Shown: in pieces, positions 31,422-47,081 of the stretch
Layout: each line of letters opens with the position of its first letter
How positions within the stretch are numbered: position 1 is the first letter of the stretch
NCBI GenBank assembly: GCA_041737125.1
Contig: JBGSSJ010000003.1
Location: 15,718 to 79,717 of the forward strand
Length of the DNA: 64,000 nucleotides
Direction of reading: 5' to 3'
DNA from: Minisyncoccia bacterium
Lineage (GTDB): Bacteria; Patescibacteriota; Minisyncoccia; Phycocordibacterales; UBA9973
Made by a program: the position numbers and the translations under genes
Notes under the pieces: model-generated
Database searches by the model: none
Told to the model about the DNA's origin: nothing
What the model saw: only the letters and a program-made list of their open reading frames with translations

Positions 31422-33386
31422 CTAAATGTATACTACTCTCTCCCCTCTACCACTCTCCCCTTGTTCGAATTCTACGAGATGCTCTGGTATGTCATTTATG
31501 AATTCACTTGGGTTATTGATCTGTCTATTACCATATATAGTACGAATAGATGCATAAGATAAATATAATTTATGCTCTGCTCGAGTGAGTGCCACATAGA
31601 ACAGTCTGCGCTCCTCTTCATTATCTTCTTTCCCTCTGTTACCCATGCGTGCATGAGGGAACAGGTCTTGCTCAAGTCCCGCAATGAAAACGTATTTAAA
31701 TTCAAGTCCTTTCGATGCATGGACTGTCATGAGTCTTACCCCACCCTTCTTCTCTTTGGGTTTATTCTCTTCGTGTATGAGTGTGTCTTGGTCAGATGCT
31801 AGGCTTGCATCTTCGAGCAATTTCTCCAATCCCTCGCCTTGTGGCATGGTGTCATACTTCGTAGCCAAAGTTACAAGCTCTTTCATGTTCTCTAGGCGCT
31901 CTATGTCATCTGTTGAGCCTTTTGCTAATTCTTCTTCAAGTCCGCTGTCGCTGATAACATACCGTATAGTTTCAGATGGAGTGTGGGTCTCTGCATAGAC
32001 TTTTATATTATCGAGTAGTCTGTAGAATTTACTAATTTTCACTTGCATGCTTGCAGGCAAGTCACCATATTGATCTGCGAAAAGTTTAAGTAGTGTGACT
32101 TTGCCTATACCACGAGTCGGTGTATTTATAATTCTTTTAATATCTGACAAGCTCTCTCTGTTGAAAGAAGCCCTGATATATGAAAGCAAATCTTTAATTT
32201 CTTTTCTTTCGAAGAACTTCACTCCTAGCACTTGGTAAGGGATATTTTTACCGAGCAATGCTTCCTCTAGTACTCTTGACTGGAAGTTCGCACGGTATAG
32301 TACAGCTATGTCTTCTGTCCTCGTGCCACTATCAATGAGTGCTTCTATGGTTCGTGCGACGAATTCAGCTTCACGGACTTCATCGTAGGCTTCATGAATT
32401 GTTATCATCTCACCTGTTTTGTTCTCAGTGAACAAAGTTTTATCTACTCTGTATTGATTCTTCTTGATTACATTATTGGCAGCTTCGATAATATTTTTCG
32501 TCGATCGATAATTCTGTTCGAGCATTATGATCTTCGTATTCGGATAATCTTTCTCGAAGTGAAGCATATTCTTGATATTAGCTCCGCGCCAACTATATAT
32601 ATTCTGATCAGTGTCACCCACCACGCATATGTTCTCTATGCCATCCGCATTCTGTCCTACGAGCAACTTTACGAGTTCATACTGCACTTCATTCGTGTCC
32701 TGATACTCATCTATATGTATGTACTTCCATTTGGTCTGGTACTTATGTTTCACTTCCGGATACTTCTTCAATATTAAAACAGTCTCGAGCAATAAGTCAT
32801 CGAAGTCGAGAGCTTTCTCCTTTTTCAATGTCCTTTCATAGTCGCGCCAGATGCGTGCGACTATACTTGTCATAGTACTACTAGCATCTTTGCTATAGGT
32901 ATCGACTGTGATGAAGTCACCTTTGGCTTTCGATATTATGCTTTTGATTTTCCTTGGCTCGAATTGCTTGGGATCTATGTCCGCTGCTTTCATAGCGTCT
33001 TTGATAATAACCATCGTGTCATGGTCATCGAGTATGGTGAAGTGCTTCGTCAGGCCGATAAGATGAGCATTCTCTTTGATAATGTACACACCGAGTGAGT
33101 GGAATGTGGATACGAACGGCACACTACCCCAACTCTGGTCTTGTCCACTATTCTCTACATCATGTAGTAAGTTTATAACTCTCTCCCGCATCTCCTTTGC
33201 GGCTTTGTTTGTGAATGTGACAGCAAGTATAGACGACGGATTAACACCTTGGTGTATGAGGTGAATAATGCGGTGGGTTATAGTCTTCGTCTTCCCTGCA
33301 CCAGCGCCAGCTACAATCAAAAGAGGCCCCTCTGTATAAAGTACGGCCTCTTTCTGTTTATCATTTAGTGAATCTAGGTATTTCAT
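31422..33386 (-). CDS. pcrA: UvrD/PcrA-family superfamily 1 DNA helicase
   Basis: 654 aa. Motif I AGAGAGKTKTITHRI, motif Ia AVTFTNKAAKEM, and later helicase motifs (VDEYQDTN-like HIDEYQDTN, GDTDQNIY-like VVGDTDQNIYSWRGA). Confidence 0.88.
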   Translation of the reverse strand: MKYLDSLNDKQKEAVLYTEGPLLIVAGAGAGKTKTITHRIIHLIHQGVNPSSILAVTFTNKAAKEMRERVINLLHDVENSGQDQSWGSVPFVSTFHSLGVYIIKENAHLIGLTKHFTILDDHDTMVIIKDAMKAADIDPKQFEPRKIKSIISKAKGDFITVDTYSKDASSTMTSIVARIWRDYERTLKKEKALDFDDLLLETVLILKKYPEVKHKYQTKWKYIHIDEYQDTNEVQYELVKLLVGQNADGIENICVVGDTDQNIYSWRGANIKNMLHFEKDYPNTKIIMLEQNYRSTKNIIEAANNVIKKNQYRVDKTLFTENKTGEMITIHEAYDEVREAEFVARTIEALIDSGTRTEDIAVLYRANFQSRVLEEALLGKNIPYQVLGVKFFERKEIKDLLSYIRASFNRESLSDIKRIINTPTRGIGKVTLLKLFADQYGDLPASMQVKISKFYRLLDNIKVYAETHTPSETIRYVISDSGLEEELAKGSTDDIERLENMKELVTLATKYDTMPQGEGLEKLLEDASLASDQDTLIHEENKPKEKKGGVRLMTVHASKGLEFKYVFIAGLEQDLFPHARMGNRGKEDNEEERRLFYVALTRAEHKLYLSYASIRTIYGNRQINNPSEFINDIPEHLVEFEQGESGRGERVVYI

Positions 33387-33432
33387 GAGTTCCTATTATA
33401 TCACTTTTATTATTTTTATTTATTTTTCTATT

Positions 33433-33738
33433 TTAACCTATCTGGCTCATGATATTCTGCGCATCATCTGCGATCTTTTGAGCCTCTTCCTTCACAATAG
33501 TATCAAGCTCAGGCACCTTCTCGGCAAGGTAGCCGAACATTACTTCTGGAGTAGGGTTCGTCTCGAGTAATTTCTCGAATGCTTCACCTTCCTTGTCATC
33601 CATGATATCAAGCACACGAAGCATGACTTCCTGGTAAACTATAGAGCCCAACTTCTCCATAACTTCCTGTTGCTGTTCTACAGGAAGCTTATCTATACCT
33701 AATATTGTAACTACATTTTTATTTATTTCATCAAACAT
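33433..33738 (-). CDS. Small acidic hypothetical protein (last gene before the helicase in the operon)
   Basis: 101 aa. Glu/Asp-rich. No TM. Confidence 0.45.
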   Translation of the reverse strand: MFDEINKNVVTILGIDKLPVEQQQEVMEKLGSIVYQEVMLRVLDIMDDKEGEAFEKLLETNPTPEVMFGYLAEKVPELDTIVKEEAQKIADDAQNIMSQIG

Positions 33739-33773
33739 ATTTTTGTCGCCAATGGCGTATTAATTATTAATTT

Positions 33774-36700
33774 CTAACGACGATACCAACCATAACCCCC
33801 TACTGGAACAGTCCACCTATTATTTGCAGCAATTACATCTACACCCCTAAGCGCTCTCCTAACTGTTTCTGGACTGTAGTCATACATAGGATTCTGGTAA
33901 TTACTTTGTCTTACGCTGTAACTTTGTCTTTGCATTCCGCGAGATGTGCGATCACCTTCTCTAAATTCATTACGATCAAGAGCTGTCTCACTTATATCTG
34001 CATCTTTCTTGAGAGCGTAGAGTGTGTTGTCTTCTGTTCTGTGTATATCGCGTGTGATACGAGTTATATACTTCTCTAGTGGTTCATCCCCTATTGGCTT
34101 TGCATTTAGAGGGTCAATCTTCTCGTATAATTTCGACATTCTTACTAGCTCTTCTTCATTCTTGAATGAAAGGTCAGTTATGGCACCGGCAGAGTTTTGT
34201 GTACCTACTACTATGCCTTTATTGATAAGTGTCTGCATTTCTTCTGTAGAAACTTGGGCATTATTCATATCGAAGAAATCTTTCGCAGGAATCTTGTTCA
34301 CAATCTTCCATTCTGGCTGTTCACGATAGTAGTCTAATGCTGTAGCTTCTACTACCTTATCTAGTTCTTTGTCGTACATATTACCTGTTTGTCCATTACC
34401 TAGAAGAGTCTGCATTGTCCTCTCTTTCTCGTATTCGTCATATGAAGCGAAATCTAGCTTCTTCTGTTCGAAAGTATTATCAACTGCATTGTTCCATTTA
34501 TTATTCTCTACTCCATTTGTTTCGACATATGTCGGCTTATCTATAACTACATTGGAGCGACCGAATGTGTCGCGGACTTCTTTCGCATCTTCTAGGTGTC
34601 TTGCATCTGCCTCTATCTTATTCATAGAGACTTCTTTGTTGCCACCTACGTTCTCTATATTATTTTGCCCTGCATTTGCTGCAGCCTCATTTTCTCTAAG
34701 TGTTTCGAGCATTCTCTCGCGTGCTTCTATCTCTGCTTGGGCTACATTGGTCATAGGTATTGGACCTTTTGTGAAGCCATTACCTTGTATTTGAGACTGG
34801 CCACTGTCGCCTGCTCTATATATAGTCTCACCTCCACCAGTGGTATTGAATCCACCACTATTCGGAGATACCATTTCAGTGTTTGTGCCATTACTATTGT
34901 CCCACTTACCTTCAAGGGGAGCTATGTCTTCATTCCTACCTTGAGTTAAGTTTGACTTAAGACCATCATTTTCTCCTGGAGTTATAGCTTGCTCATCTAC
35001 TTGTATATTTTGATTTATCTTTTCCGGAGCATCTCCTCCATTTAGTGGTTGCTCATCTACTTGTATATTTTGATTTATTCTCTCTGGTGCATCTCCTTCT
35101 AGTCCTGTCTGAGAATTACTTGCTTCAAATTCAGAAACTTTCTCTGGTGATACCATTCTACTACCAGATCGATCAGAGTCGAACATCTTACCATCATACT
35201 TACCTGAAGGTGCCTCCGCGTCTCCTTTTGCGAGCTCTATAGGAGTACCACCTTCACTCTGACTGTATGATACATTGCCACTCTCATCTACATTAAATCT
35301 TCCACCGAGCTGTAGCATTGCACTCTCTGCGTCTTTACTAGGATCGAACATGCCGTACTCTATAGCAAGCTTGTCTGCTTTCGTATCTAGGATATGTTGC
35401 ACACTCGCAGGTCTGGTCGCTTCATCAGGATATTCTGCCTCCAACTTTTCTTGAAGTTCTTGTATTGTCTGTATTGCTCCATGACCTTTCGCAACTTCGA
35501 CACTTACTGCTTCTGGTTTCTCTTCATTTTGTTCTTGCTCAGTTTCCTCTTCTTTTTCTTCAACCTTCTCTTCCTCTTCCTCATTTGCCTCTTCTTGTTC
35601 CTCTTCATTATTTTCACTTTCTTCCTTTTCTTCAGCTTCATTGTCTTCCTTCGACTCTTCTTCCTCTACAGTTCCGTTATCATTATTTCCAGCCTCTTCT
35701 ACCTCAGGAGCTGGGCCAACTTCATCAGGACCTAGGCTTCTACCTGGATAATTATTAAAACCAAACAACCTTTTAAAGAATCCAGGTTTACTCTCTGCTT
35801 GATCTGCGACTTCTCCTGCTACTGGAGCAGCTACTTCTGGCTTCTCTATATTGTCTCCACCTAGGTTTATACCTAATTGTCCGGAAGCCAGTAACTCAGT
35901 TCCACCACCAAGTACAGCACTCATAGTTAGACCCACTGCCATTTTGGCGCGAGCTCTATTCCTTAATCTTTTCTTCTCGGCTTCATCGAGCTTCAGCATC
36001 TCCTCATCGTATTTCTTCAGATCGATACTATTGGCAGCGAACTGGTTGCCCAGGACTTCCATTTGAGCTTTCTGGTATTCTGCAAATGCCTCATCTTTCT
36101 TTTTATTTTTAAGATCTATGCCTTGGACAGCAAGAGCAGTTCCTTGACCTATTGTGTAGCTTCTTGCTAAACCTTTTGTAAATTTATAACCTGCATATGC
36201 TCCAGCACCTGCTGCTCCGACAATCCCAAAACTTACGGCACCTATCGTAAAAATACCAGTATTTAGAGCAATTCTTGCGGGCTTCGGTAGTTTTACATAC
36301 CAGTTTAGAGCCTGCTTCCAGTAAGGCTTTACAGGTGAACCCTCTGTCTTTTGTTTAGCTAATTTCCTCTTTTCTTCTACATAGACTTTCCCGAGGACTT
36401 CTGTTGCTTTGTATTTTAGGAAAGCTTCTTGTACTTGTTGGTAAGAAAGACTAGGATCTCTGTCCAACTCTCGCATCTTTTCATGGCAAAGTTTACGTTC
36501 TAGTGCTTGCCTTGCTTGGTCGTAAGATTCCTTAGTATTTTTGTATTCTTGTGAAAAGTAGTCCTCTTCTGCGATTTTCTTTGATATCCCAAGGCTAGCT
36601 TTAACCTTATCAATATTTAATTTCAGTTTATGTTCCTTTTTATTCTTTTTGTATTGCTCTACATATTCTCCGCGAGCGATATGTAATGCGATCTCTTCGC

Positions 36701-36938
36701 CATCCATGCCAAGCTCACGTCTAAGCTCGTCTAGCACATATGGAGATGCGTTCTCTGCGACAGCTTCTTGATACAACTTTATTTTATCTTTCAAAAGCTT
36801 GTCCTTCTCGTCCTCTATAGTCGCCGCATTCTTAATAGCCAGCTTTTTGTCAGCTTCTATTTCCTTCGCAAGCTTTTTCGCATCGGCTGGGGTTGGAGGA
36901 ACTATCGGAGCTATTGGGGGTACATCAACGTTTGTCAT
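33774..36938 (-). CDS. Very large hypothetical membrane protein with a poly-acidic (Glu-rich) region and an internal 20 aa tandem repeat
   Basis: 1054 aa. Hydrophobic helices (IALNTGIFTIGAVSFGIVGAAGAGAYAGY; MAVGLTMSAVLGGGTELLASG). Tract EEEESKEDNEAEEKEESENNEEEQEEANEEEEEKVEEKEEETEQEQNEE. Repeat APERINQNIQVDEQPLNGGD x2. Confidence 0.6.
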   Translation of the reverse strand: MTNVDVPPIAPIVPPTPADAKKLAKEIEADKKLAIKNAATIEDEKDKLLKDKIKLYQEAVAENASPYVLDELRRELGMDGEEIALHIARGEYVEQYKKNKKEHKLKLNIDKVKASLGISKKIAEEDYFSQEYKNTKESYDQARQALERKLCHEKMRELDRDPSLSYQQVQEAFLKYKATEVLGKVYVEEKRKLAKQKTEGSPVKPYWKQALNWYVKLPKPARIALNTGIFTIGAVSFGIVGAAGAGAYAGYKFTKGLARSYTIGQGTALAVQGIDLKNKKKDEAFAEYQKAQMEVLGNQFAANSIDLKKYDEEMLKLDEAEKKRLRNRARAKMAVGLTMSAVLGGGTELLASGQLGINLGGDNIEKPEVAAPVAGEVADQAESKPGFFKRLFGFNNYPGRSLGPDEVGPAPEVEEAGNNDNGTVEEEESKEDNEAEEKEESENNEEEQEEANEEEEEKVEEKEEETEQEQNEEKPEAVSVEVAKGHGAIQTIQELQEKLEAEYPDEATRPASVQHILDTKADKLAIEYGMFDPSKDAESAMLQLGGRFNVDESGNVSYSQSEGGTPIELAKGDAEAPSGKYDGKMFDSDRSGSRMVSPEKVSEFEASNSQTGLEGDAPERINQNIQVDEQPLNGGDAPEKINQNIQVDEQAITPGENDGLKSNLTQGRNEDIAPLEGKWDNSNGTNTEMVSPNSGGFNTTGGGETIYRAGDSGQSQIQGNGFTKGPIPMTNVAQAEIEARERMLETLRENEAAANAGQNNIENVGGNKEVSMNKIEADARHLEDAKEVRDTFGRSNVVIDKPTYVETNGVENNKWNNAVDNTFEQKKLDFASYDEYEKERTMQTLLGNGQTGNMYDKELDKVVEATALDYYREQPEWKIVNKIPAKDFFDMNNAQVSTEEMQTLINKGIVVGTQNSAGAITDLSFKNEEELVRMSKLYEKIDPLNAKPIGDEPLEKYITRITRDIHRTEDNTLYALKKDADISETALDRNEFREGDRTSRGMQRQSYSVRQSNYQNPMYDYSPETVRRALRGVDVIAANNRWTVPVGGYGWYRR
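34989..35108. repeat. 60 bp tandem repeat x2 (ttgctcatctacttgtatattttgatttat...), encoding the 20 aa INQNIQVDEQ repeat of the 1054 aa protein
   Basis: Read directly; the two units are about 90% identical. Confidence 0.8.
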
Positions 36939-36939
36939 A

Positions 36940-38484
36940 TTATTGTTTGTTAACTAAATTATTGAATTCTTCTTCGACCTGTTTTATATACTCATTTGTC
37001 CTTTCTATATAAATTTTCTTGGCTGCTTGATAGCCTTGTACCTCGTACATTATTCTACCATTCTGGTCTGCTATTTTATATATCTCATTGTTGTCGTTAT
37101 TATCATCAACTTCAAAATGGTATCCACCGTAGTCACCCACATTCTTTGGGTTAGGTTCTGATATTCGAAGACTAAAGCCAGCTGTGTTGAAATCTACACA
37201 AAAATCTTCGTCACCATATATACTTGTCCTAGACTTGTTCTTATAAATAGCTTGTATGTATTCAACAGTTTCATCGAAAGATTTGTAAAAATAATAACCC
37301 GCATCTATTCCAGTTAAGCTGATATATTCCTCTCCTTCTTCTTTATGGTCACTACGATCACGTAGGTACCCATCAATAATTGGATCAGTTACCTTACGTG
37401 CTAGAAAGTAAGGTAATGGGAATGTTTTCTTCATGTTTAATTCTAGAGATTCTTTTAGGTCCTCAAGCTTAATGAATTTTTTTTGTCTTTCTAGAAGGAG
37501 TTTGTCTTCTTCTTCTTTTAATACTTTCTTCTGAGCATCGTTCGCTACCTTAATCTGTTCCCGCACAGCTTCTATTTGTTTGTATATCTCACTTCTTTGT
37601 GAAGTTATTTCATTAAAATCCCTTACACCCTTCTCGAAATTCTCCTTCGCTTCCTGTTTTCCTTTTGGGCTTACATTTATCCATCTATCCATATTCTCTT
37701 CTTCACGCTTTGTTCTTTCGATTGTTCTCTTGATTTCTTTTCTTCTGTCTCCATTTTTGAAATACTTCCATACCTTTGGGAATGTTTTTCCGAAAGAAAG
37801 TTCACCCAATTGTTCTTTTAGAATCTCAGTCTTATTGCTCGGACCTACATTTTTCTTCTGTGCATCTGGAGTAACACCAGGCGCGGTATTCACAGCTGCT
37901 GGTGCTGGGTTAACAGTCGCAGGTTCCACAGTCTTTTTAGTGTTCTCTCCTTTCTTCTGTTCTAGCCCACGCAAGATGAGCTCATTTGCTCTGATCTTCT
38001 CACGTAATGCATAATTACCTTTCTCTTCTTGTTCTAACCACTTTTCTTTATTCAATAAAGATTGCATCTTATCTCTGAATGCACCATCTACCTTCCCCTG
38101 CTGTTCAGGGGTTCTAGATTTAGGTTCTTTTGTTTCTTTCTTCTCATTGTCATTATCTAGATCAAGAGGCCCAAGCTCATCAGGCTCAGGAGCTGCCACC
38201 TTTGCTGGTTCAAGTTCGTTGTCTTTGTCATCCAAATTATGAGGTCTTAATTTATCATCTTCAGCTTCTTCTTCCACCCCAAATGCTTTCCTGGTTTGAG
38301 CCAGCTGGTCTGCGGTCAGAGTTTGGCCTGCTATGAATTCATTAAATTTTCTTAAAGCTTCTGCCCTTTGGTTTGATTTTTCTTCAGCTATTTTAGCCTC
38401 TATTGCATCGGCTTTTGCCTGCAGAGCTTGCTTCTCTTTTTCTATTTCCTCTTTAGTTTGTGTTGGGGGGTAATCTTTTGTCAT
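36940..38484 (-). CDS. K/E-rich coiled-coil hypothetical protein, paralog 1 of a tandem pair
   Basis: 514 aa. No TM. C-terminal domain shares collinear motifs with the next ORF: PLPYFLARKV/PFAYYLVDKI, EYISLTG/QYVSLKG, GFSLRI/GFSMKI, YIKQVEEEFNNLVNKQ/YINKVEKEFNKLTNK. Confidence 0.6.
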   Translation of the reverse strand: MTKDYPPTQTKEEIEKEKQALQAKADAIEAKIAEEKSNQRAEALRKFNEFIAGQTLTADQLAQTRKAFGVEEEAEDDKLRPHNLDDKDNELEPAKVAAPEPDELGPLDLDNDNEKKETKEPKSRTPEQQGKVDGAFRDKMQSLLNKEKWLEQEEKGNYALREKIRANELILRGLEQKKGENTKKTVEPATVNPAPAAVNTAPGVTPDAQKKNVGPSNKTEILKEQLGELSFGKTFPKVWKYFKNGDRRKEIKRTIERTKREEENMDRWINVSPKGKQEAKENFEKGVRDFNEITSQRSEIYKQIEAVREQIKVANDAQKKVLKEEEDKLLLERQKKFIKLEDLKESLELNMKKTFPLPYFLARKVTDPIIDGYLRDRSDHKEEGEEYISLTGIDAGYYFYKSFDETVEYIQAIYKNKSRTSIYGDEDFCVDFNTAGFSLRISEPNPKNVGDYGGYHFEVDDNNDNNEIYKIADQNGRIMYEVQGYQAAKKIYIERTNEYIKQVEEEFNNLVNKQ

Positions 38485-38488
38485 TTTA

Positions 38489-40072
38489 TTATTTGTTAGT
38501 TAATTTATTGAATTCTTTTTCGACCTTATTTATATATTTTTGTGTAGCTTCTTCGTATATAGCTAGAGCATTATTGTAATCGACTTGCTCTATAATTTTC
38601 TTTCCATCAGGATTCATAACTTCATATCTGGCTTTAGGGTCAGATAATTTAACCCGTTCATTCGCATCCTTACTCAATTCTTCAAGGTTAACTATCTTCA
38701 TACTAAAGCCAGATAAATTATATTTAACAATATTGTCGAGTTCCTTTATGAAGCTCTCAAATGTAAGGGTAGTTATTTCTGAATGAGCCAACGGATTCTC
38801 TGCAAAATTTGAATAATAGATCTTGTTTCCTTTTAAAGATACATATTGCTCCCCACTTTGCGTCTCATTTGTTAAGAGATTTTTAATTAAAGGATTTTTA
38901 ATTTTATCTACTAAGTAGTAGGCGAAAGGGTATTCTTTCTTTTTAATTTGCTCATATGATTTTTCAATTTCATCTTGCTCAGCAGTTAATAACCTCCTTT
39001 TTGTATATAAATTGTCCCATTCAACATCCTCTGGTTCATATTCTTCCATTTGTAAATGACACTCTTCAATTTTTTTGTCTATATCATTGTATTTAGATTT
39101 GAGCCCAAATAGCTTTTCTTGATTCTCTTTTGAAGCTTCTATTTTAGCCTCTTCTTGTTTTGCTTTTTCTATTTTCTTTTCTAATTGCCACTGTTTTATA
39201 GCATAGATAGTTCCTCTAAATACATTCCATCCAGGTGTATTCCTTATCTTTTCATTTATAGTGTCTAATTCTATTTGTAATTCTTCGCTCTCTTTTATTG
39301 GGATATTTTTTTCTTCTGTTAGTGTCACAGGAATAACCACAGGTTCATCTGTGTTATTTTCTATTTCTTCTGTTGGTTCTTTGTCTTCTGTCTCAGCATC
39401 CTCTCCTTCTGAGCTCTCTTCCCCTGCTATTGTTTCCCCCGTTTCTTTATCTTGTAGCCTCTTTATGTCTTCTGGTCCAGGATCTATTATCAAAGGTACG
39501 TCGTCTTCTGGTTTAGCTTCTATTTCTGGTATAGGATTCTCTCCTGTTGGCACCTTAGCTTCAGTTTCTGTTGAAGAAGATGGTGTAAAGATAAATTCTT
39601 TAGCTTTCTCTGCTTCAGCTTCTTTAGCGATTCTTTGTCGCTCCATTTCATCCTTCTCAAGCTCTTCTATGAATTTATTTTTCTCTTCTATTTCTTTCTT
39701 TATTACATCGAGCTCTTGTTGATAACCTGCTAGCCTTGCATTCCTTTCCTCTGTAGCTTGCTTCACGGAAGCTAGTAAACTTTGGAAAAAGTCATCATAG
39801 GCTTTTTGTTCGTCTTCTTTACTACTCTCGTCTACTGCATTTTGTGTGTTTTCTGGAGCTTGTGTGTTTGTTATTGAGTCACCCACTATTTTTACCCCCC
39901 TTAAATCTATATTTTTTAGGTTTGGGTTTTGGCTATCAAGATACATACTGATTTCTTCATCGGTCATAGTCTCGAAGCCGGGCTTCTTCTTCAGATCTGC
40001 TATTAACTTAGCTTTTTTTTCTCCTTTCTTTTTTGCTATTTCTTCTGTTGTTAGAGGTTTACTTTCAGGCAT
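38489..40072 (-). CDS. K/E-rich coiled-coil hypothetical protein, paralog 2 of a tandem pair
   Basis: 527 aa. Same C-terminal domain as 36940..38484. Acidic Ser/Glu-rich middle region. 4 nt gap to the downstream paralog. Confidence 0.6.
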   Translation of the reverse strand: MPESKPLTTEEIAKKKGEKKAKLIADLKKKPGFETMTDEEISMYLDSQNPNLKNIDLRGVKIVGDSITNTQAPENTQNAVDESSKEDEQKAYDDFFQSLLASVKQATEERNARLAGYQQELDVIKKEIEEKNKFIEELEKDEMERQRIAKEAEAEKAKEFIFTPSSSTETEAKVPTGENPIPEIEAKPEDDVPLIIDPGPEDIKRLQDKETGETIAGEESSEGEDAETEDKEPTEEIENNTDEPVVIPVTLTEEKNIPIKESEELQIELDTINEKIRNTPGWNVFRGTIYAIKQWQLEKKIEKAKQEEAKIEASKENQEKLFGLKSKYNDIDKKIEECHLQMEEYEPEDVEWDNLYTKRRLLTAEQDEIEKSYEQIKKKEYPFAYYLVDKIKNPLIKNLLTNETQSGEQYVSLKGNKIYYSNFAENPLAHSEITTLTFESFIKELDNIVKYNLSGFSMKIVNLEELSKDANERVKLSDPKARYEVMNPDGKKIIEQVDYNNALAIYEEATQKYINKVEKEFNKLTNK

Positions 40073-40256
40073 ATTTATATATGTTTAATTAGTATGCAAA
40101 TTATACCACAATTTAATAAAAAAGCAAGTATTTACACGAGTGAACATTTTACTCTTTTATTATACTATAGCTTTTCTTTTTTAGGTAATAAAAATGCTCG
40201 GAACTTGCGTTCCGAGCGGTTTTTTGTGTTTAGGTTTCTCATGATCCATTTTGGAT

Positions 40257-40865
40257 CTAATTTACTGTGTGGGGGTGTGCCATGTTTGCAGCAGAAGCTG
40301 GGTTAGGTATCGTCACTGGCTGTGCAGCCAAAGCTTTTCTCTTGGCCCTGTGTGAGAGTAGCATCAAAGTAAGGATTCCAACTGTTGTTACTAAGAATAA
40401 CAGCATCCCAACTTTGGATTTGATCTTTTGATCCTGTAACACAACAGCCTCCTTAAAAGTAGTTTTAGGTTCTGACACAATTTTACCTGCAGTGTCTTTA
40501 ATGGGTTTCTGTGGGTATAGCTTTGCAGCTATTTCGTCCAGGCTTTGGAGTTGTTGTTTGCTTGTGGCGGCATTTTCTGCCACCAAGCTCAAAACTTCCT
40601 TCACCTTTCTTACGCTGTCGTCAACAAGATCTGCGTAATGCCAAGCATCATCTGCTCTGGTTTGTGCTGTGGATACCTGATTCTGCAGGTTCTGCTTGTC
40701 CTTTTTTTGGGCCTTTTCAAGCTCAGCTAACTTTTGGGTTAGTGCCTGAACTTGTTCATCTAGGCCTTGTGCCTGTGTGTCCAAGTTGAAGATAAACAGA
40801 ATTGCGAGGGTGGCCACTATGGCCGATGTTACCTTTTTCATGGTTGTAAATTGATTTATACCCAC
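40257..40865 (-). CDS. Hypothetical secreted coiled-coil protein with a C-terminal TM anchor and a basic tail
   Basis: 202 aa. Signal peptide (MKKVTSAIVATLAILFIFNLDTQA). Heptad-like Q/L/A region. C-terminal TM (VGMLLFLVTTVGILTLMLL) plus HRAKRKALAAQP. Confidence 0.5.
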   Translation of the reverse strand: MGINQFTTMKKVTSAIVATLAILFIFNLDTQAQGLDEQVQALTQKLAELEKAQKKDKQNLQNQVSTAQTRADDAWHYADLVDDSVRKVKEVLSLVAENAATSKQQLQSLDEIAAKLYPQKPIKDTAGKIVSEPKTTFKEAVVLQDQKIKSKVGMLLFLVTTVGILTLMLLSHRAKRKALAAQPVTIPNPASAANMAHPHTVN

Positions 40866-41034
40866 CTTTTTATTTTAGGTGAGCTTGAGTGAATAGATAA
40901 ATAGTACCACCTCAATTTCCAATAACTTGAAAAGCAAAGTGGTACTCTCAATATATCCACACAATATTTCAAAGAGCTAATACTGTGCATATACTAGCAT
41001 ATTTATACCCTTCTGTCAAGGGGTATTTTGTATA

Positions 41035-43521
41035 TTACTCTTCGTTTTCTACAAATTTAACCTTCGGCTTTTTGATTATATCCCAAGAACCATCGCTGTT
41101 CTTCTTTGCCTCCCCTTCTTCTACAAGTTCCATTTTAGTTATACCTCTTACTGGGTTATTCATGAGCTCAAATCCGTCTATATAATTTTTCCAATCAGTT
41201 ACACTTACATAATATTTCTGCGCAGATATATTACTGTTTAAAGATATTGTCGCAGTGCCATCACCATGATCTTTTAACTCAAAAACCTGTTCACCATTTT
41301 CAGTTTCACTAACCATGTCTTTCTTAAATATAAGATCACCGTCTATATTGGCTCCTTTAGGCCAAGCGAATTTCGCATAATAAGTTTTCACTACTTCTTT
41401 ATTCTCTATCGGCATTGATTGTTCAGGGTTTGATTTATTAAATTCTTCCAGCAAGACTCTAATTACCTCCTCATCTGAAGAATTCCTGAATTTTATGTTC
41501 TCATCGAAATCTTTTATTTTAGGAAGGTGTTTTATGTATTCTTGATTAAAGAAAACTTTGTCTGTCTTCAACAAATTTTCATATTCTTCTATGTTGTTTG
41601 GAACCTCTATTCCTCTATTCTTATTCTCGTTTTCTTCTGCTTGCATTGCATTCATACTCGCTTCTACATTCTCTACACCTAGAAGATCCATCATATCTGC
41701 TGTAGCCGGAGAATTTTTTTTCAGTTCATCCATATCTATTTTTATCTCAGGTTCTTCTTCGGGTTGTAGTGCCGCTAATTCCGCATCGTATTTTGCGTTG
41801 ATCTCTAAATAAGATTTCAGTGCTTTTTTGTGTTTGTCTATACTATCTACATAACCTTGATTATCTCCATTCAAATATTTCCCCTCCTCTCTACCCTTCA
41901 GTGTATATTCTCCTGTATCAATCCAGTCTTTTAAAATTTTATCAAAAATTTTAGTATTATCAGGTCGATAGTCTCTTTCATATCGGTATCCATCAACATT
42001 TTTAATTAAATCTTCCTCCCTTCTTTTTTCTATATCAGCTATTTTTTCTTCCAGTTCTTCTAGTTTCGCCATCTCTGCCCAGTATTGTGCTATTAATTCA
42101 TCTACAGTCATTTCTGCTTCTTTATCCTCTACTAAAGATTCAGGAATATCTTCACCTACTTCCTTTGGTGCTTGCTCTATTTCTACTACAGGCTGTGGTT
42201 GCGTCTTCTGATAGGCTTCATATTCTTCAAGGAGTTTTTCTGCTCCTTCTTTTTCTATTTTTATACCCCTTAATTTGAATTCTCTAGGTAGCATTGCAAC
42301 ATTCACATATCCCAGTTCATTTGCAATATCAATAACCATCTGTAAGTTTTTAGGAAGTTCTGGTTTCTGTTCTGTATTTAATTCGGGTTTTACTGGCTCA
42401 TCGTTCAGTTTAGGTTCTTTGTTGATATCTTCATTATATTTATTGAGCACAAAGTCTATTCCTGGAGCAAAAAGAAATAATTTCATCTGATCTGGTGTCA
42501 TAGAACCCCTTGTTCCGTCTGTAAGGTTATCGAAAGGTATTTTATCTCCTTTTTTCTTCCCAATTTTATAAACTATGTTCCTTTTAACGCCAGTCCTTTT
42601 GACGATGACTATCGTACCCTCCTCTATAAGATTAAATTTTCTTTCCTTGTCACTTTCTTTTATTTCAGTATTTGTTTTTTCTTCTACTATAACTTTATCA
42701 AATTTAAGCGGTAAATTTCTTGCAATTGCTAACTCTAAATCTTTTAAATTTTTTTCATTTATTTGTATTTTTCTTCTTATCTCTCTTCTCTCTTCGTCAG
42801 TTTTTGCATTAGATAATTCTTCATTTCTCCTTCTGATACTGTTATTTATCGCTGTTTTTATCCATAAAACAGGACCTTGGTTGAAGTCTTTTAAATCCCT
42901 CTTGTTTCTTTCTTGAGCTTCTTTGCTCTGGGGTATCTCTATGAGTATACTTTTCCAGTAATTATATTGCCTCTCTACTATATCAGCTAATTCTCTGTCA
43001 TCTAAGATCTTTTCTTTTTGAGCACCAGTGGGTTTTCCTCGCACTTCTTTAACATCTTCAAATGGTATAGTTTCACCAATCGTTTTCAAATTCCAACCCT
43101 TTTTAGGTTTATCTGGAATATTTGTTAATTTTAGATTTGGTCCTGGCATATCTTGTTCCTCAATTGTATCATAATTATCTGTCTCAATCTCAAATACTCC
43201 GTCCATAAGACTCCCCTTTTCGTTGGGATTTTCTCTTCTTTTGATTTGATCTGCTGATAAGTAGAACCCTACTTCATCATTATTTTTGTTTGACTCCGGC
43301 TTATAACTACCCATAAGCTGGTACCTAGTTTTCTTTTTTGCTTCCTCTTTAGGTGTTGCCTTGTTGTTGTTTTGTCCTTCTTCGAACTTGATAGCTTCTT
43401 CTTTTTTGAATTTCCATCCTTTCTTTTTATTCTTCGCATCTTTCTTCTTCTCGATTCCTGGGAATGTTCCTCCACCTAGGTCAGCTAGGTTTTTTGAATA
43501 GAATTTTTGTCCTTCAGGCAT
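41035..43521 (-). CDS. Large K/E-rich hypothetical protein (first gene of the 33.4-43.5 kb minus-strand operon)
   Basis: 828 aa. No TM. Extensive Lys/Glu-rich, predicted coiled-coil sequence. No catalytic motif found. Confidence 0.55.
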   Translation of the reverse strand: MPEGQKFYSKNLADLGGGTFPGIEKKKDAKNKKKGWKFKKEEAIKFEEGQNNNKATPKEEAKKKTRYQLMGSYKPESNKNNDEVGFYLSADQIKRRENPNEKGSLMDGVFEIETDNYDTIEEQDMPGPNLKLTNIPDKPKKGWNLKTIGETIPFEDVKEVRGKPTGAQKEKILDDRELADIVERQYNYWKSILIEIPQSKEAQERNKRDLKDFNQGPVLWIKTAINNSIRRRNEELSNAKTDEERREIRRKIQINEKNLKDLELAIARNLPLKFDKVIVEEKTNTEIKESDKERKFNLIEEGTIVIVKRTGVKRNIVYKIGKKKGDKIPFDNLTDGTRGSMTPDQMKLFLFAPGIDFVLNKYNEDINKEPKLNDEPVKPELNTEQKPELPKNLQMVIDIANELGYVNVAMLPREFKLRGIKIEKEGAEKLLEEYEAYQKTQPQPVVEIEQAPKEVGEDIPESLVEDKEAEMTVDELIAQYWAEMAKLEELEEKIADIEKRREEDLIKNVDGYRYERDYRPDNTKIFDKILKDWIDTGEYTLKGREEGKYLNGDNQGYVDSIDKHKKALKSYLEINAKYDAELAALQPEEEPEIKIDMDELKKNSPATADMMDLLGVENVEASMNAMQAEENENKNRGIEVPNNIEEYENLLKTDKVFFNQEYIKHLPKIKDFDENIKFRNSSDEEVIRVLLEEFNKSNPEQSMPIENKEVVKTYYAKFAWPKGANIDGDLIFKKDMVSETENGEQVFELKDHGDGTATISLNSNISAQKYYVSVTDWKNYIDGFELMNNPVRGITKMELVEEGEAKKNSDGSWDIIKKPKVKFVENEE

Positions 43522-43794
43522 ATGTGAAATTATACAACACTTATGCCAAAAGTGTCAAAATTTGGCTCCATACTTCATTTTTAAAGGTTTAAATGGACCT
43601 GTTCATAAGATGTGAATTACTCGGTTGACTAACTTTTCTATATGGGATACCCTTGTACTTGTAGGGTTGGTGACCAAATGCCCCATAACTCCCGAATAGA
43701 AGACTTGCTTTATATCATAGAGCTTTCCCGACCGTCCAAACCTCTTATGCAATTACAACAAACCCCAAAAGATTCTAGCGATCCATCTATTAAA

Positions 43795-44976
43795 ATGGGT
43801 CAAAAGATGAAAATATCGTTATTTATCAAGCCTATTACTGTAAAGGCTTGTTTCTCTCTAGTCGTGTTTATGTATGTTTTCGCGCAATCAAGCCCTGCCT
43901 ATGCTGGGTTTTTCTCTGATTTGGTAAGAAGTGTCATGGGTAATGAGACTCAAGCATCTGAAGTAGAGACTATAAAAGGTGAAGTCATTCATAACTCTCA
44001 GAACGTCCCTCTCCTTGAGTCCTCTATCAACCCAGATCTTAAGAATATAAAGAGAGATGAAGTAGTTATTCTAGAAGAAGAAGGCTTATTGTCTACTAAT
44101 GGGGCACTTGATGTAGATTCTGAGCTTGAGAAATATGATCCAACGGTCAAAATTACGACTTATGTAGTGCAAAAAGGTGATACTATAGAAGGCATAGCAA
44201 AGAAGCTTGGTATTACGAAGGCAGCAATTATAGACTCAAATGCAGACTTGAAAGAGGACGATATGATAAAAGTAGGAGAATCCCTTGTAATTCTAGGACT
44301 TAAGGCTGAGAAAGCTAAAGAATTAGCAAATAAGGAAGATGTGAAGGTAGCTACTCCTACAAAGAAAGAGGAGCCAAAGAAGAAAGAAGAAGTAAAAATA
44401 GCAAAAGTCGCCCCAGAACCTAAAAAAGAAGCTCAAAAAACAGAAGTAAAGAAAGAGGTCATAGCGCAAGTTCAAGCTCCAGTCGTAAACACACCAGTAG
44501 TGGAAGTACAAGCAAGTAAAAAAGTAGAGCTAAAGAGTGAGGAAGCTCCTACTCCGACTGGCCAACCAGATGGTGATATAGATGGAGGCTACATCTGGCC
44601 ATTCCCGAAAGGAGTCGGCCGAGTATCACAAGGCTTACATGCTGACCAAGCTTACGACTTCGCTGCACCGAAAGGCACACCTATATATGCAGTAAATAGT
44701 GGTACGGTGGTTGTAGCGAAACCAACTGGTTATAATGGAGGATATGGTTTGTATGTCGTTATAAACTTTGATGATGGTAGACAAGCAATATTCGGCCACA
44801 TGAGTAAAGTACAGGCGAAAGCTGGTCAAGTAGTGAAGAAAGGTGAAGTTATAGGTTATGTAGGTACGACAGGCAAGTCTACAGGTAACCACTTACACCT
44901 CGGCTTCCGTGGCGCGCTTCGCAACCCTTATATAGGATTAAAAGTTAATGATAAAGATTTTATAAACCATGAATAA
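43795..44976 (+). CDS. LysM-domain peptidase M23 (murein endopeptidase type). Start chosen at MGQKMKISLF; the tracked ORF begins at 43642
   Basis: Signal peptide ending SSPAYA|G. LysM (YVVQKGDTIEGIAKKLGITKAAI). Lys/Glu/Pro-rich linker. M23 motifs HxxxD-like HADQAYDF and GNHLHLGF (HxH). Confidence 0.8.
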   Translation: MGQKMKISLFIKPITVKACFSLVVFMYVFAQSSPAYAGFFSDLVRSVMGNETQASEVETIKGEVIHNSQNVPLLESSINPDLKNIKRDEVVILEEEGLLSTNGALDVDSELEKYDPTVKITTYVVQKGDTIEGIAKKLGITKAAIIDSNADLKEDDMIKVGESLVILGLKAEKAKELANKEDVKVATPTKKEEPKKKEEVKIAKVAPEPKKEAQKTEVKKEVIAQVQAPVVNTPVVEVQASKKVELKSEEAPTPTGQPDGDIDGGYIWPFPKGVGRVSQGLHADQAYDFAAPKGTPIYAVNSGTVVVAKPTGYNGGYGLYVVINFDDGRQAIFGHMSKVQAKAGQVVKKGEVIGYVGTTGKSTGNHLHLGFRGALRNPYIGLKVNDKDFINHE

Positions 44977-45355
44977 ATTTATTTTATATTTAGTTATAGC
45001 TTCATTTTTAGTTGTGAGTCCTTCTGTAGTAAATGGAGAGCGATTAATAGCGGTACCTAGTATTATCACGCCAGAGACTGCCCCATACTCAGCGAAACCC
45101 AAAGCCAAAGCAAAAGCGAAGGTTGCTACAGTGAGGAACTTGAAGTTCGGCATGGTTGGGAATGACGTGACGGTATTACAGAACTTTTTAATAAAGAAGA
45201 ATGTAGGTCCTGCAGCTCAAGCACTAGCGAAACACAAAGCTACTGGCCGCTATGGAGAGCTTACAAAAGCTGCCCTTATCGAATATCAGAAAGCCAAAGG
45301 TCTAACTGCCGATGGTATAGCTGGTCCGAAGATGAGAGCTGAATATAAAAAATAA
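44969..45355 (+). CDS. Secreted peptidoglycan-binding (PG_binding_1-like) domain protein
   Basis: 128 aa. Signal peptide. GNDVTVLQNFLIKKN...GRYGELTKAALIEYQKAKGLTADGIAGPKM matches the PGBD consensus. Confidence 0.65.
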   Translation: MNKFILYLVIASFLVVSPSVVNGERLIAVPSIITPETAPYSAKPKAKAKAKVATVRNLKFGMVGNDVTVLQNFLIKKNVGPAAQALAKHKATGRYGELTKAALIEYQKAKGLTADGIAGPKMRAEYKK

Positions 45356-45360
45356 TTCAT

Positions 45361-45400
45361 AAAATAAAATCCCTCGAGTGTACTCGAGGGATTTTATTTT
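45361..45400. terminator. Perfect bidirectional intrinsic terminator aaaataaaatccctcgagtgtactcgagggattttatttt
   Basis: Read directly: 13 bp stem (including a palindromic CTCGAG) flanked by an A-run and a T-run; sits between convergent genes. Confidence 0.75.
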
Positions 45401-47081
45401 ATGAGACTTCTTGCTGATAGCAGGATTCACAATATATAATATCCGGTTTGTCTTTGCTGTAAGTTGTTTGAAATTTTTCGATACAATTATCTGTATGATT
45501 ATTGTGATTACTCTTGTCACACATGCATGACCTCTCATGTAGAGTACGAGGGTTTCTCCTTCGTATTCTGTCTTGATGCCTGCATTCGAAATCTTTATGA
45601 GGTAGTGGCAAGTTCATCTTCTTATAGAAGGCAAGCTCAGCTTCCACAATTTTATAATTCTTATTACATTCTTCGCACACCAGAATTTCTTGTAGGATAT
45701 TATCACTAACATTTTCTATTGTGTTTGGTGTATTACCTTTTGCTATTGTTTCTTTACTATATGTTCCAGTAACCTGCTCTTGCCATTTGTAACCTCGCTT
45801 CAGTGCTTCCTCTTTTGATAGTGGGAAGAAGTCACAAGCGAGTGTCTCATTATATCCGAATGGTGCAATGTGTGAAGGGAAGAATTGGTCAGCATCTTCT
45901 TCTTTCTTTATCTCTTCCAAAACTTTCTTTTTTAATTCTAGGTATTCTTCTTTTTCATATTCTTTATTGAGAATCATATGATTACCTTTTCTTATCGCGA
46001 TACAACCTATAGCATCAGATAAGTGGTAGGAACTTTCGCAATACATAATGTCATTACAGTAGAAGACGAAAGCAGAATTGCGGAGTTTATTTCCCTCGAG
46101 TGCGCCCATAATATTGTACCCATAACTTGGTCTGTAGTAATAATTATTGCAATCCATGCTGTCTATAGGGCTCTCTGAATCAGTCATATAAGAACAATTC
46201 TTTGCATCATAAGTATCAAAAAGCATAACTCCGTCATGACAGTTGTGCAAATAGTTCCCTGTTACGTTGTGGCATTTTGTCTGTGAAGAATATTTCTTCA
46301 CAGTTTCGTTCTTTAACTTCTCAAATTCTTTTTTCGCCTGTTCTATACTCTCATAACTTGCGAGTATTTCTTTCTTTTTATTTTCAAATTCTTCTTTACT
46401 ATATTTAACATTGAGAATTGCATTTGATAAGTGTCTTCCGTTTGAGCATAGAATGCAATTCTGTGAATCACGTATGTTGTAGCAGAAGAGTAAATCACTA
46501 GACGATTGGCATTGCTCGGAATACATACACTTGAAGCATTGCCTACAATCTATGCATTCATAACAAAGTTCTGATTCATGTAAGAACGCGCAGTCCACAC
46601 ATTGCTTGTCCCTCTGAAGGAGTCTGCCATACATACAGTCTTCATTATAGTCAGCAGCAAATATTAGATAGCAGTCTTTATTCTCCGCAGATCCATTCGT
46701 GTAATCACTACGGACATTATTGAAAGCCATGAGCCCCAGCCTAGGCACTTCCATTTGTAATTCTTTGTATTGCTTAAAGAAAGATTTGTTGAAATCATAT
46801 TCTCTGCCATAATCTTTCGGATTCCAATCATCGCTCCACCAGCAATCATGACAGTAAACTTTGTAAGGTGATGTCGGTGCATATACAGTAATGATATCTT
46901 TTTCGCAAAGGTCACAGGCCCTTTTGTAGAAAGTTCTTTCGTTTCGGAAAACCAATCTCCTTGCCATTCTACAATCTGGACAATATATAGGAGGAAGCAC
47001 ACTCATCTGCTCGTAGAAGACCATATCTTCGTCTTTAATAACGAACTCCTTTTCACATGTTTTACAGGTCTTGTTTAACAT
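45399..47081 (-). CDS. Cys-rich predicted multi-zinc-binding protein, paralog A (family not recognised)
   Basis: 560 aa. N-terminal CxxC...CxxC zinc-ribbon pairs (CKTCEKEF...CPDCR; CDLCEKD...CHDCWW). Central Cys-ladder (CVDCAFLHESELCYECIDCRQCFKCMYSEQCQ). C-terminal CEECNKNY...CESCYQQEVS. Collinear with 58290..59987. Confidence 0.65.
   Translation of the reverse strand: MLNKTCKTCEKEFVIKDEDMVFYEQMSVLPPIYCPDCRMARRLVFRNERTFYKRACDLCEKDIITVYAPTSPYKVYCHDCWWSDDWNPKDYGREYDFNKSFFKQYKELQMEVPRLGLMAFNNVRSDYTNGSAENKDCYLIFAADYNEDCMYGRLLQRDKQCVDCAFLHESELCYECIDCRQCFKCMYSEQCQSSSDLLFCYNIRDSQNCILCSNGRHLSNAILNVKYSKEEFENKKKEILASYESIEQAKKEFEKLKNETVKKYSSQTKCHNVTGNYLHNCHDGVMLFDTYDAKNCSYMTDSESPIDSMDCNNYYYRPSYGYNIMGALEGNKLRNSAFVFYCNDIMYCESSYHLSDAIGCIAIRKGNHMILNKEYEKEEYLELKKKVLEEIKKEEDADQFFPSHIAPFGYNETLACDFFPLSKEEALKRGYKWQEQVTGTYSKETIAKGNTPNTIENVSDNILQEILVCEECNKNYKIVEAELAFYKKMNLPLPHKDFECRHQDRIRRRNPRTLHERSCMCDKSNHNNHTDNCIEKFQTTYSKDKPDIIYCESCYQQEVS

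Follow-up and report, generated by a model that had tools for sequence, protein, structure and literature searches.

The contig JBGSSJ010000003.1 of a Minisyncoccia bacterium (assembly GCA_041737125.1) contains, within the 64,000-nt stretch analyzed here (positions 15,718 to 79,717; the window), a cluster of six minus-strand open reading frames (ORFs) that encode proteins of 828, 202, 527, 514, 1054, and 101 aa in the order of transcription and are followed 46 nt later by a helicase gene. The original prediction, made from the sequence alone, had described these ORFs with the same positions, lengths, and strand, which our analysis confirmed, and had interpreted them as a single operon of large, charged coiled-coil proteins. 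Because sequence homologues of five of the proteins and a positional analogue of the sixth occur in related Patescibacteria/Saccharibacteria loci, all six ORFs are judged to be genuine genes. Neither sequence, fold, nor gene context assigns the cluster to any known kind.

Gene content and transcription layout

Lysine and glutamate (K+E) account for 21-29% of the residues in five of the six proteins, compared with a mean of 16.5% (standard deviation, 3.7) over all ORFs in the window, and these five proteins are acidic overall; the 101-aa protein, which had been described as acidic, has a net charge of -13. The 202-aa protein, with 14% K+E and a net charge of +6, is the exception to the description of the set as K/E-rich. 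Its gene has a GC content of 0.443 (0.43 at third codon positions, GC3), similar to the values of pcrA and ksgA, whereas the flanking 828-aa and 527-aa genes have a GC content of 0.34 (GC3, 0.27); the use of AAA and GAA codons probably explains why GC3 is low in the K/E-rich genes. Coiled coils were estimated with a home-made heptad heuristic, the specificity of which is limited because it also marks 9% of PcrA. It marked 47% of the 202-aa protein but only 8-22% of the 828-, 527-, 514-, and 1054-aa proteins; the latter, contrary to the coiled-coil character ascribed to the products, seem to contain some coiled-coil segments without being mainly coiled coil.

The helicase matched the Pfam families UvrD-helicase (E-value [E], 1e-88) and UvrD_C (E, 6e-69) and covered the full length of the NCBIfam model TIGR01073 (PcrA) with 707.8 bits. 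Since this score does not reach the equivalog cutoff of 911 bits, the protein, called PcrA below, is a member of the UvrD/PcrA family whose exact orthology is uncertified.

The intergenic gaps had been given as 1-35 nt. This range applies from the 527-aa gene onward (4, 1, and 35 nt, followed by the 46 nt before pcrA), but the 828-aa and 202-aa genes are separated by 169 nt and the 202-aa and 527-aa genes by 184 nt; tight packing is thus limited to the 527-514-1054-101 genes. A promoter-like site that agrees with the sigma-70 consensus at 12 of 12 positions precedes the 828-aa gene, the mRNA of which is predicted to be leaderless or nearly so because the -10 box ends 7 nt before the ATG (Table 1). 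The 202-aa gene is preceded by its own promoter-like site and followed by an intrinsic-terminator-like hairpin inside the 184-nt gap; the hairpin, with a 9-bp GC-rich stem and a T-run, is strong and reads as a terminator on either strand. Downstream of it, an extended -10 box likely marks the start of a 527-514-1054-101 transcription unit, and a similar box lies just upstream of pcrA. The same pattern was found in L006, one of the loci (labeled L001-L016) that we drew from genomes, metagenomes, and assemblies for synteny comparison: a 12/12 promoter lies 5' of the 828-like gene, a promoter-like site lies upstream of the gene for a 176-aa anchored protein, and a terminator with an 11-bp stem follows that gene.

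The six genes and pcrA lie on the same strand, but the gaps are not all short, and the set contains an internal terminator and internal promoters by prediction. Because of the two long gaps, the strong terminator, and the internal promoter-like sites, the genes more probably form two or three transcription units than the single six-gene operon originally proposed, a proposal that the layout of L006 also contradicts. In the most likely layout predicted from these signals, the 828-aa gene and the 202-aa gene are transcribed separately upstream of the terminator and the 527-514-1054-101 genes form a unit downstream of it, with pcrA optionally reached by read-through.

On a wider scale, the genome represented by the window looks poor in Shine-Dalgarno (SD) sequences and rich in leaderless or short-leader starts (for example, at 43529..43558, 33395..33403, and 27260..27275). 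An SD-like 4-mer was present at -16 to -5 in 4 of the 47 ORFs of the window, and a TATAAT-like box ended 5-12 nt 5' of the start codon in 16 of the 47, a raw count in AT-rich DNA.

Table 1. Genes, domains, and predicted transcription signals in and around the cluster, in the order of transcription of the minus strand
Feature	Position	Strand	Remarks
Small secreted PG_binding_1 protein gene	44969..45355	+	Just downstream of the M23 gene; 8-nt ORF overlap
LysM + M23 peptidoglycan endopeptidase gene	43642..44976	+	Secreted; divergent from the 828-aa gene
Promoter-like site TTGACA-18-TATAAT	43529..43558	-	12/12 sigma-70 consensus; -10 box ends 7 nt before the 828-aa ATG
828-aa protein gene	41035..43521	-	ORF list and translation
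Head-A domain, residues 171-371 of the 828-aa protein	42409..43011	-	Helical bundle and small SH3-like beta-barrel (model)
Promoter-like site TTGACA-17-TAGTAT with upstream TG	40991..41019	-	Precedes the 202-aa gene
202-aa protein gene	40257..40865	-	ORF list and translation; ATG at 40841 is the likelier start
Intrinsic-terminator-like hairpin GCTCGGAAC-GCAA-GTTCCGAGC then ATTTTTATTA	40196..40217	-	After the 202-aa gene
Extended -10 box TGgTATAAT	40100..40108	-	27 nt upstream of the 527-aa gene; read from the sequence
527-aa protein gene	38489..40072	-	ORF list and translation
C-terminal domain of the 527-aa protein, residues 351-527	38492..39022	-	Profile match, E 1.6e-45
514-aa paralog gene	36940..38484	-	ORF list and translation
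C-terminal domain of the 514-aa protein, residues 315-513	36946..37542	-	Profile match, E 1.4e-35
1054-aa membrane protein gene	33774..36938	-	ORF list and translation
Gly/Ala-rich hydrophobic segments, residues ~219-366 of the 1054-aa protein	35841..36284	-	Hydropathy scan
E-rich tract, residues 412-481 of the 1054-aa protein	35496..35705	-	70 aa, 50% Glu; longest pure Glu run 5
Conserved domain D1 of the 1054-aa protein	35019..35519	-	Orthologue comparison
2 x 20-aa tandem repeat of the 1054-aa protein	34977..35096	-	15/20 aa and 49/60 nt identical
Conserved C-terminal domain D2 of the 1054-aa protein	33909..34571	-	Orthologue comparison
101-aa acidic helical protein gene	33433..33738	-	DUF5663 by homology
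TGaTATAAT box of pcrA	33395..33403	-	8 nt before the pcrA ATG
UvrD/PcrA-family helicase gene	31422..33386	-	Pfam/NCBIfam; 46 nt 3' of the 101-aa gene

Protein families and conserved gene order

The 527- and 514-aa proteins each consist of a charged linker and short coiled-coil segments followed by a C-terminal domain (CTD). In agreement with the earlier description of the two as paralogs with a common C-terminal domain, they share just their last ~175 residues (26-29% identity; BLASTP E, 8e-16, or 1e-13 with SEG filtering). When 1.84 billion representative proteins were searched exhaustively with HMMER, starting from an alignment of the paralog CTDs, a family of 49 proteins emerged, and both window proteins showed a significant profile match at their C-terminal ends. 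In 44 of the 47 non-window members, the best match ended at most 6 residues from the C-terminus, and the N-terminal parts preceding the CTD were highly variable and K/E-rich. The CTD was not found in Pfam, NCBIfam, the PDB, PHROGs, or PADLOC; no family of SMC, phage tail, or S-layer proteins, named with the original prediction as possible relatives, and no defense family matched it or the other cluster proteins. The profile searches indicate that the CTD is a real, rare, and previously undescribed family, the recovered loci of which are labeled Candidatus Saccharibacteria or Patescibacteria wherever their source is named.

Structure prediction by AlphaFold2 (AF2) of the 514-aa CTD from a 38-sequence alignment (predicted local distance difference test [pLDDT], 76.9; predicted TM-score, 0.75) gave an alpha/beta model with N-terminal helices, about six short strands, and a long C-terminal helix. 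Foldseek found no match to this model in the PDB (best E, 0.28; TM-score, <0.21) or in BFVD (best E, 0.013; TM-score, 0.18). Sequence profile searches of the PDB with the CTD alignment and with the alignment of the large membrane proteins yielded nothing significant, nor did P0016 and the 828-aa protein against PDB sequences. Word-index searches with the 514- and 1054-aa proteins returned the queries alone, low-complexity and poly-E words having probably swamped the candidates, and the search with the 38-sequence CTD alignment returned one protein; a narrower CTD alignment (A4), used for locus recovery, returned four genome loci and one metagenome locus. The domain LPD18 (PF18832) occurs in large polyvalent proteins encoded by phages and conjugative elements. 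Pfam matches to it were obtained for 4 of 38 CTDs (best E, 0.042) and for neither window protein; in the one match inspected, residues 162-201 of P0021 aligned locally with positions 40-80 of the 86-position profile, over the beta-hairpin and helix of the CTD, and scored 13.7 bits (E, 0.069), well short of the 26.8-bit cutoff.

Each other locus contains one CTD gene, and only the window contains two. The 527-aa CTD is closer to that of P0011, its orthologue in L006 (39% identity), than to the 514-aa copy; in a neighbor-joining tree it groups with P0011, and the 514-aa CTD, ~30% identical to everything, branches outside this pair. The 527-aa protein thus appears to be the orthologue-like copy and the 514-aa protein a divergent extra copy. 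Because the two are only ~30% identical and are not sisters in the tree, and the 527-aa copy is nearer to P0011, these comparisons point to an old duplication or a fast-evolving extra copy and contradict the recent diversification that had been suggested. In spite of this low protein identity, the final 40 nt of the two genes (38489..38530 and 36940..36980) are identical at 33 of 40 positions, and both stretches run straight into the start codon of the next gene; the likeness may reflect a conserved ...EEFNxLxNK C-terminus, a translational-coupling signal, or gene conversion.

The 828-aa protein is acidic and K/E-rich, is homologous to a 939-aa protein at the equivalent position in L006 (E, 3e-13), and has no family in Pfam, NCBIfam, PHROGs, PADLOC, or the PDB. 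It contains a domain, here called head-A, that was modeled by AF2 with a pLDDT of ~78-88 over model residues 78-267 and for which Foldseek returned only generic SH3/Tudor-like small-barrel matches (E, >=0.04). Head-A matched the N-terminal regions of two CTD-bearing proteins, P0036 in L010 (E, 4e-7) and P0017 (E, 2e-4), and its profile matched in L006, L010, and L015, in the last case in the first gene of the locus. By these matches, head-A and the CTD are fused in some genomes (P0036/L010 and P0017) and encoded separately in others, and the 828-aa protein is a free-standing head-A protein. A DHH-like head is likewise joined to the CTD in L003 and L005 but has a gene of its own in L004. The fusion and fission of both heads with the CTD suggest that the parts are functionally linked. 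Two candidate similarities of the 828-aa protein were set aside: the matches of its beta-rich C-terminal part to the N-termini of P0052 and P0041 were marginal (E, 0.022 and 2.1) and are not claimed, and no similarity was found for a suspected FtsK_gamma-like segment.

Other recurrent heads of the CTD family are absent from the window, namely, a 'WSFPNY...PYWEV' domain directly before the CTD and the DHH-like head, which has DxD and DHH motifs and a weak Pfam DHH match (E, 0.004); the proteins concerned are P0019, P0022, P0025, P0027, P0040, P0042, and P0052, and P0016, P0025, and L004:3124-5094. In L002, the CTD gene (L002:8683-10447) and the large-protein gene (L002:10526-13377) are each split into two ORFs relative to the near-identical L001, through either assembly frameshifts or pseudogenization.

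As had been predicted for a secreted coiled-coil protein with a C-terminal anchor, the 202-aa protein has a hydrophobic signal-like N-terminus, a heptad-rich middle, a transmembrane (TM) segment at residues 147-174, and a basic tail, an architecture that suggests a membrane-anchored protein with a heptad-rich ectodomain. In L006 (176 aa; E, 0.002) and L015 (198 aa), a gene a short way 5' of the CTD gene encodes a counterpart with this architecture. Searches of PHROGs gave one weak match (E, 0.0035) and those of PADLOC two matches at chance level (E, 0.006-0.009; 12-13 bits), all to this protein.

The 1054-aa ORF, which begins 1 nt after the 514-aa gene, encodes an N-terminal coiled-coil region and glycine-zipper-like segments that are only moderately hydrophobic. 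Of the two sequence peculiarities reported earlier, the 20-aa repeat was recovered as two tandem copies, and the poly-Glu run as a 70-aa tract, only half of which is Glu. Orthologues directly follow the CTD gene in L001-L010, L012, L013, and L015, and the large protein ranges from 805 to 1290 aa. The L005 orthologue (L005:10465-13383) contains an FtsK_gamma winged helix (PF09397) at residues 79-138 (E, 7.5e-13; 48.4 bits against a cutoff of 30.6); this domain was matched in 1 of ~11 orthologues and not in the window protein. Since the winged helix lies N-terminal to the hydrophobic segments, the N-terminal end is probably cytoplasmic, and the last hydrophobic segment in four orthologues has 4-7 K/R residues upstream and 0-1 downstream. 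We infer an N-in/C-out orientation for the family, in which case the E-rich and proline/threonine-rich linkers would be external, as would D1 and D2.

None of the cluster proteins had been assigned to a nameable family. This holds for most of them, since the 828-, 527-, 514-, and 1054-aa proteins gave no meaningful match in Pfam, NCBIfam, PHROGs, or PADLOC, but not for the 101-aa protein, which homology places in DUF5663 (PF18908), a family of unknown function. The protein itself matched the Pfam model below its gathering cutoff (E, 0.0064; 17.5 bits against 23.7). It is homologous, however, to proteins of ~100 aa that occupy the equivalent position in 10 other loci, with phmmer E-values of 1e-15 to 2e-26 for the orthologues in L001-L005 and profile E-values of 1e-37 to 1e-46 across all positional orthologues, and DUF5663 matches at E <= 1e-5 are on record for those in L006, L008, L012, and L014. 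Within the library searched, no mention of DUF5663 was found, and relevant terms were not found in a Saccharibacteria transposon sequencing (Tn-seq) paper. Apart from DUF5663, no component of the cluster appears to belong to a described family.

The recurring gene order is PNPase/ComM, an opposite-strand LysM-M23 gene, 0-4 variable genes, the CTD gene, the large-protein gene, the DUF5663 gene, pcrA, and ksgA. In the 11 other distinct loci with enough sequence, one CTD gene is followed by an orthologue of the 1054-aa gene after 1-15 nt, often 1-5 nt. The next gene in L011, L014, and L016 (gap, 20-36 nt) encodes a coiled-coil/Gly-rich membrane protein, which we treat as a positional analogue only because the large-protein family profile does not detect it. 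The DUF5663 gene comes next in 10 other loci, and PcrA is encoded downstream in eight (L001, L002, L005, L006, L008, L012, L015, and L016).

The product of the M23 gene in the window matched Pfam Peptidase_M23 (E, 2.9e-25) and LysM (E, 5e-12), with a visible signal-like segment. A LysM-M23 gene lies upstream on the opposite strand in 11 of 11 other distinct loci whose contigs reach far enough, even in L011 and L016, whose wider context differs, and the M23 and PG_binding_1 gene pair also occurs in L010. In the variable slot, L012 and L013 have genes for YkuD L,D-transpeptidases, which exceed the Pfam cutoff with 27.3 and 24.1 bits, respectively, and L006 and L015 have genes for small signal-peptide/coiled-coil/TM proteins.

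In the same genome pairs, the global identity of the CTD proteins and the large proteins was 16-30%, that of the DUF5663 proteins 54-59%, and that of PcrA/ComM 72-82%. By this comparison, the core proteins evolve much faster than the products of the flanking genes.

A candidate trans-envelope scaffold and competing explanations

The analyses described above show the gene anatomy, the protein families, the synteny, and the domain fusions, from which the topology, physical contacts, and function proposed here are inferred. We tentatively favor the reading that the cluster encodes a fast-evolving, lineage-specific (Saccharibacteria/Patescibacteria) trans-envelope scaffold tied to cell-wall (peptidoglycan) remodeling, in which the CTD docks variable heads on the membrane protein. 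Its core would comprise a cytoplasmic adaptor (variable head, charged linker with short coiled coil, and conserved ~165-aa CTD; two copies here), the 1054-aa membrane protein anchored through its glycine-zipper hydrophobic segments, usually the small acidic DUF5663 protein, and the secreted LysM-M23 peptidoglycan endopeptidase encoded divergently upstream. The coiled-coil N-terminal region of the membrane protein would be cytoplasmic, and the two conserved domains of this protein would lie outside together with the linkers, which are acidic and rich in proline/threonine. Docked onto the cytoplasmic part by the CTD, the adaptor would display different heads: head-A, supplied in the window by the separate 828-aa protein, or the DHH-like head in other genomes. 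The assembly might thereby couple cytoplasmic events, possibly in division or at the chromosome, to cell-wall remodeling outside, with the 202-aa protein as a separately transcribed accessory, a putative membrane-anchored extracytoplasmic coiled coil.

The link to the envelope, which the original prediction had raised, is supported by the conserved LysM-M23, PG_binding_1, and YkuD neighbors. Several points weigh against the scaffold. No component resembles a known regulator of cell-wall hydrolases; the topology comes from a crude hydropathy scan, in which the L010 orthologue has no segment above threshold; and the FtsK_gamma domain that helps to orient the protein occurs in one orthologue only. 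In addition, pcrA and the 828-aa and 202-aa genes have promoter-like sites of their own and so may not be co-regulated with the rest. Moreover, the sources of many loci are fairly closely related, so that inheritance of gene order, instead of selection, may account for some of the synteny.

Known systems offer analogies. FtsEX-EnvC and FtsEX-PcsB control peptidoglycan hydrolases through a membrane protein with coiled-coil partners; the cluster similarly places a membrane protein with coiled-coil partners beside an M23/LysM hydrolase and would follow the same inside-to-outside coupling logic. The likeness is one of analogy only, however, as there is no sequence or fold similarity, and the cluster proteins include no FtsE-like ABC ATPase (ABC_tran) and no FtsX. 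DivIVA, GpsB, and EzrA are division scaffolds of Gram-positive bacteria, and the cluster resembles them in that its cytoplasmic proteins contain coiled-coil segments and would dock on membrane proteins in the vicinity of genes for cell-wall functions. The cluster has no Pfam or NCBIfam match to these scaffolds, though, and the CTD fold has no PDB match; searches of the same two family databases also found no SMC_N, hinge, or other cytoskeletal family. Unlike FtsK/SpoIIIE proteins, from which the gamma domain of the L005 orthologue is known, the cluster contains no FtsK motor domain anywhere.

It is unlikely that the cluster is instead a host-interface apparatus of an epibiont, in which the external part of the 1054-aa protein and the 202-aa coiled coil would form a diversifying surface structure for attaching to or feeding on a host bacterium, with the adaptors anchoring or regulating it. 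Such a role would fit the very fast divergence relative to the flanking genes, the modular head swapping, the presence of a tandem repeat and of acidic and proline/threonine-rich linkers in the portion predicted to be external, and the restriction of the family to Saccharibacteria-like genomes, since cultivated members of this group are epibionts (PMC10633639). The most variable parts, however, are the heads of proteins without a signal peptide, hence cytoplasmic; the conserved partners are the cell's own wall enzymes (M23 and YkuD), not adhesins; and no adhesin, pilin, SLH, or S-layer domain was found with Pfam or NCBIfam. A surface fiber built from the K/E-rich proteins, as suggested earlier, is also unlikely because the hydropathy scan detected no signal peptide or TM segment in the 828-, 527-, and 514-aa proteins.

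The FtsK_gamma winged helix binds DNA, and it raises the question of whether the cluster, together with the downstream PcrA, forms a membrane tether for DNA or the nucleoid that serves chromosome segregation, repair, or the handling of imported DNA. The DHH-like (RecJ/NrnA-type) heads of some CTD proteins, the downstream position of PcrA in eight loci, including the divergent L016, and the nearby ComM would be in keeping with such a tether. We consider it distinctly unlikely: the winged helix is confined to the L005 orthologue, the DHH assignment is below threshold, PcrA is a housekeeping protein whose gene has its own promoter-like box, and no nucleic-acid-binding domain was detected in the six window proteins with Pfam or NCBIfam.

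The extended collinearity of the flanks, which in most loci reaches from PNPase and ComM to PcrA and KsgA, could also mean that inherited gene order alone keeps together fast-evolving, largely disordered lineage-specific proteins with no joint function, as could the large low-complexity charged portions of the proteins and the probable division of the window region into several transcription units. This explanation is quite improbable, given that the order of M23, CTD, and membrane-protein genes survives the changed context of L011 and L016, that the 1-5 nt spacing between the CTD and membrane-protein genes recurs in most loci, and that the two heads undergo fusion and fission with the CTD. 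A mobile element, prophage, or anti-phage defense island, to which the weak LPD18 matches and the modular, fast-evolving architecture might point, is very improbable and largely refuted by the lack of any PHROGs or PADLOC family at meaningful scores, of tblastn matches in 50,697 phage or 72,556 plasmid records, of relatives in two IMG/VR scans, and of an integrase or transposase within the cluster, and by the constant location of the cluster on the chromosome, between housekeeping genes, in all genomes seen.

These readings are not all exclusive, and a scaffold linked to division could be in contact with DNA as well as with the cell wall. A bolder version of the favored scaffold, which we regard as doubtful, is that the CTD adaptor, glycine-zipper protein, and DUF5663 protein constitute a previously undescribed trans-envelope machine that replaces missing canonical regulators and makes the activity of LysM-M23 and L,D-transpeptidases depend on the state of the cytoplasm or chromosome while the cell divides or buds on a host, with swappable heads tuning it in each lineage.

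Patescibacteria account for a large part of bacterial diversity, and their genes are mostly uncharacterized; the abundance of such genes in Candidate Phyla Radiation (CPR) genomes tempers the weight of the novelty of the cluster, but this module is one of the few uncharacterized ones here that are precisely definable. The CTD, D1, D2, and DUF5663 are concrete targets for study, and some Saccharibacteria are now genetically tractable. Should the cluster prove to govern wall remodeling or division in ultrasmall epibionts, it would reveal how such reduced cells dispense with some components of the standard machinery; otherwise, it still provides several new domain families and a clear case of very fast evolution within a conserved gene order.

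Other observations in the window and related loci

Two paralogous proteins of ~560 aa, encoded at 45399..47081 (minus strand) and 58290..59987 (plus strand), are 34% identical over their full length and have no Pfam family; their orthologues adjoin the cluster in L002 and occur as tandem copies in L006. Downstream of ksgA and a gene for a 298-aa protein, positions 27013..29259 (minus strand) encode an uncharacterized, heptad-rich protein of 748 aa with only a weak Pfam match (Laminin_II), which is conserved in L008 and L009 (E, 5e-99). A short region is common to P0043 (L012:1818-3707), P0025 (L003:4752-8003), L006:4545-7364, and L006:7376-9061 (BLASTP, 33-39% identity over 75-156 aa); it was assigned to no family, and in P0043 a motif resembling 'AYHKAKxDGSNPELVxAVE' was recognized by eye. 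The PcrA orthologue of L001 (L001:13623-16709), a locus from a related Saccharibacteria metagenome-assembled genome, is 1028 aa long and contains an intein between helicase residues ~273 and ~629 (Intein_splicing; E, 6e-12), whereas the window PcrA is intein-free.

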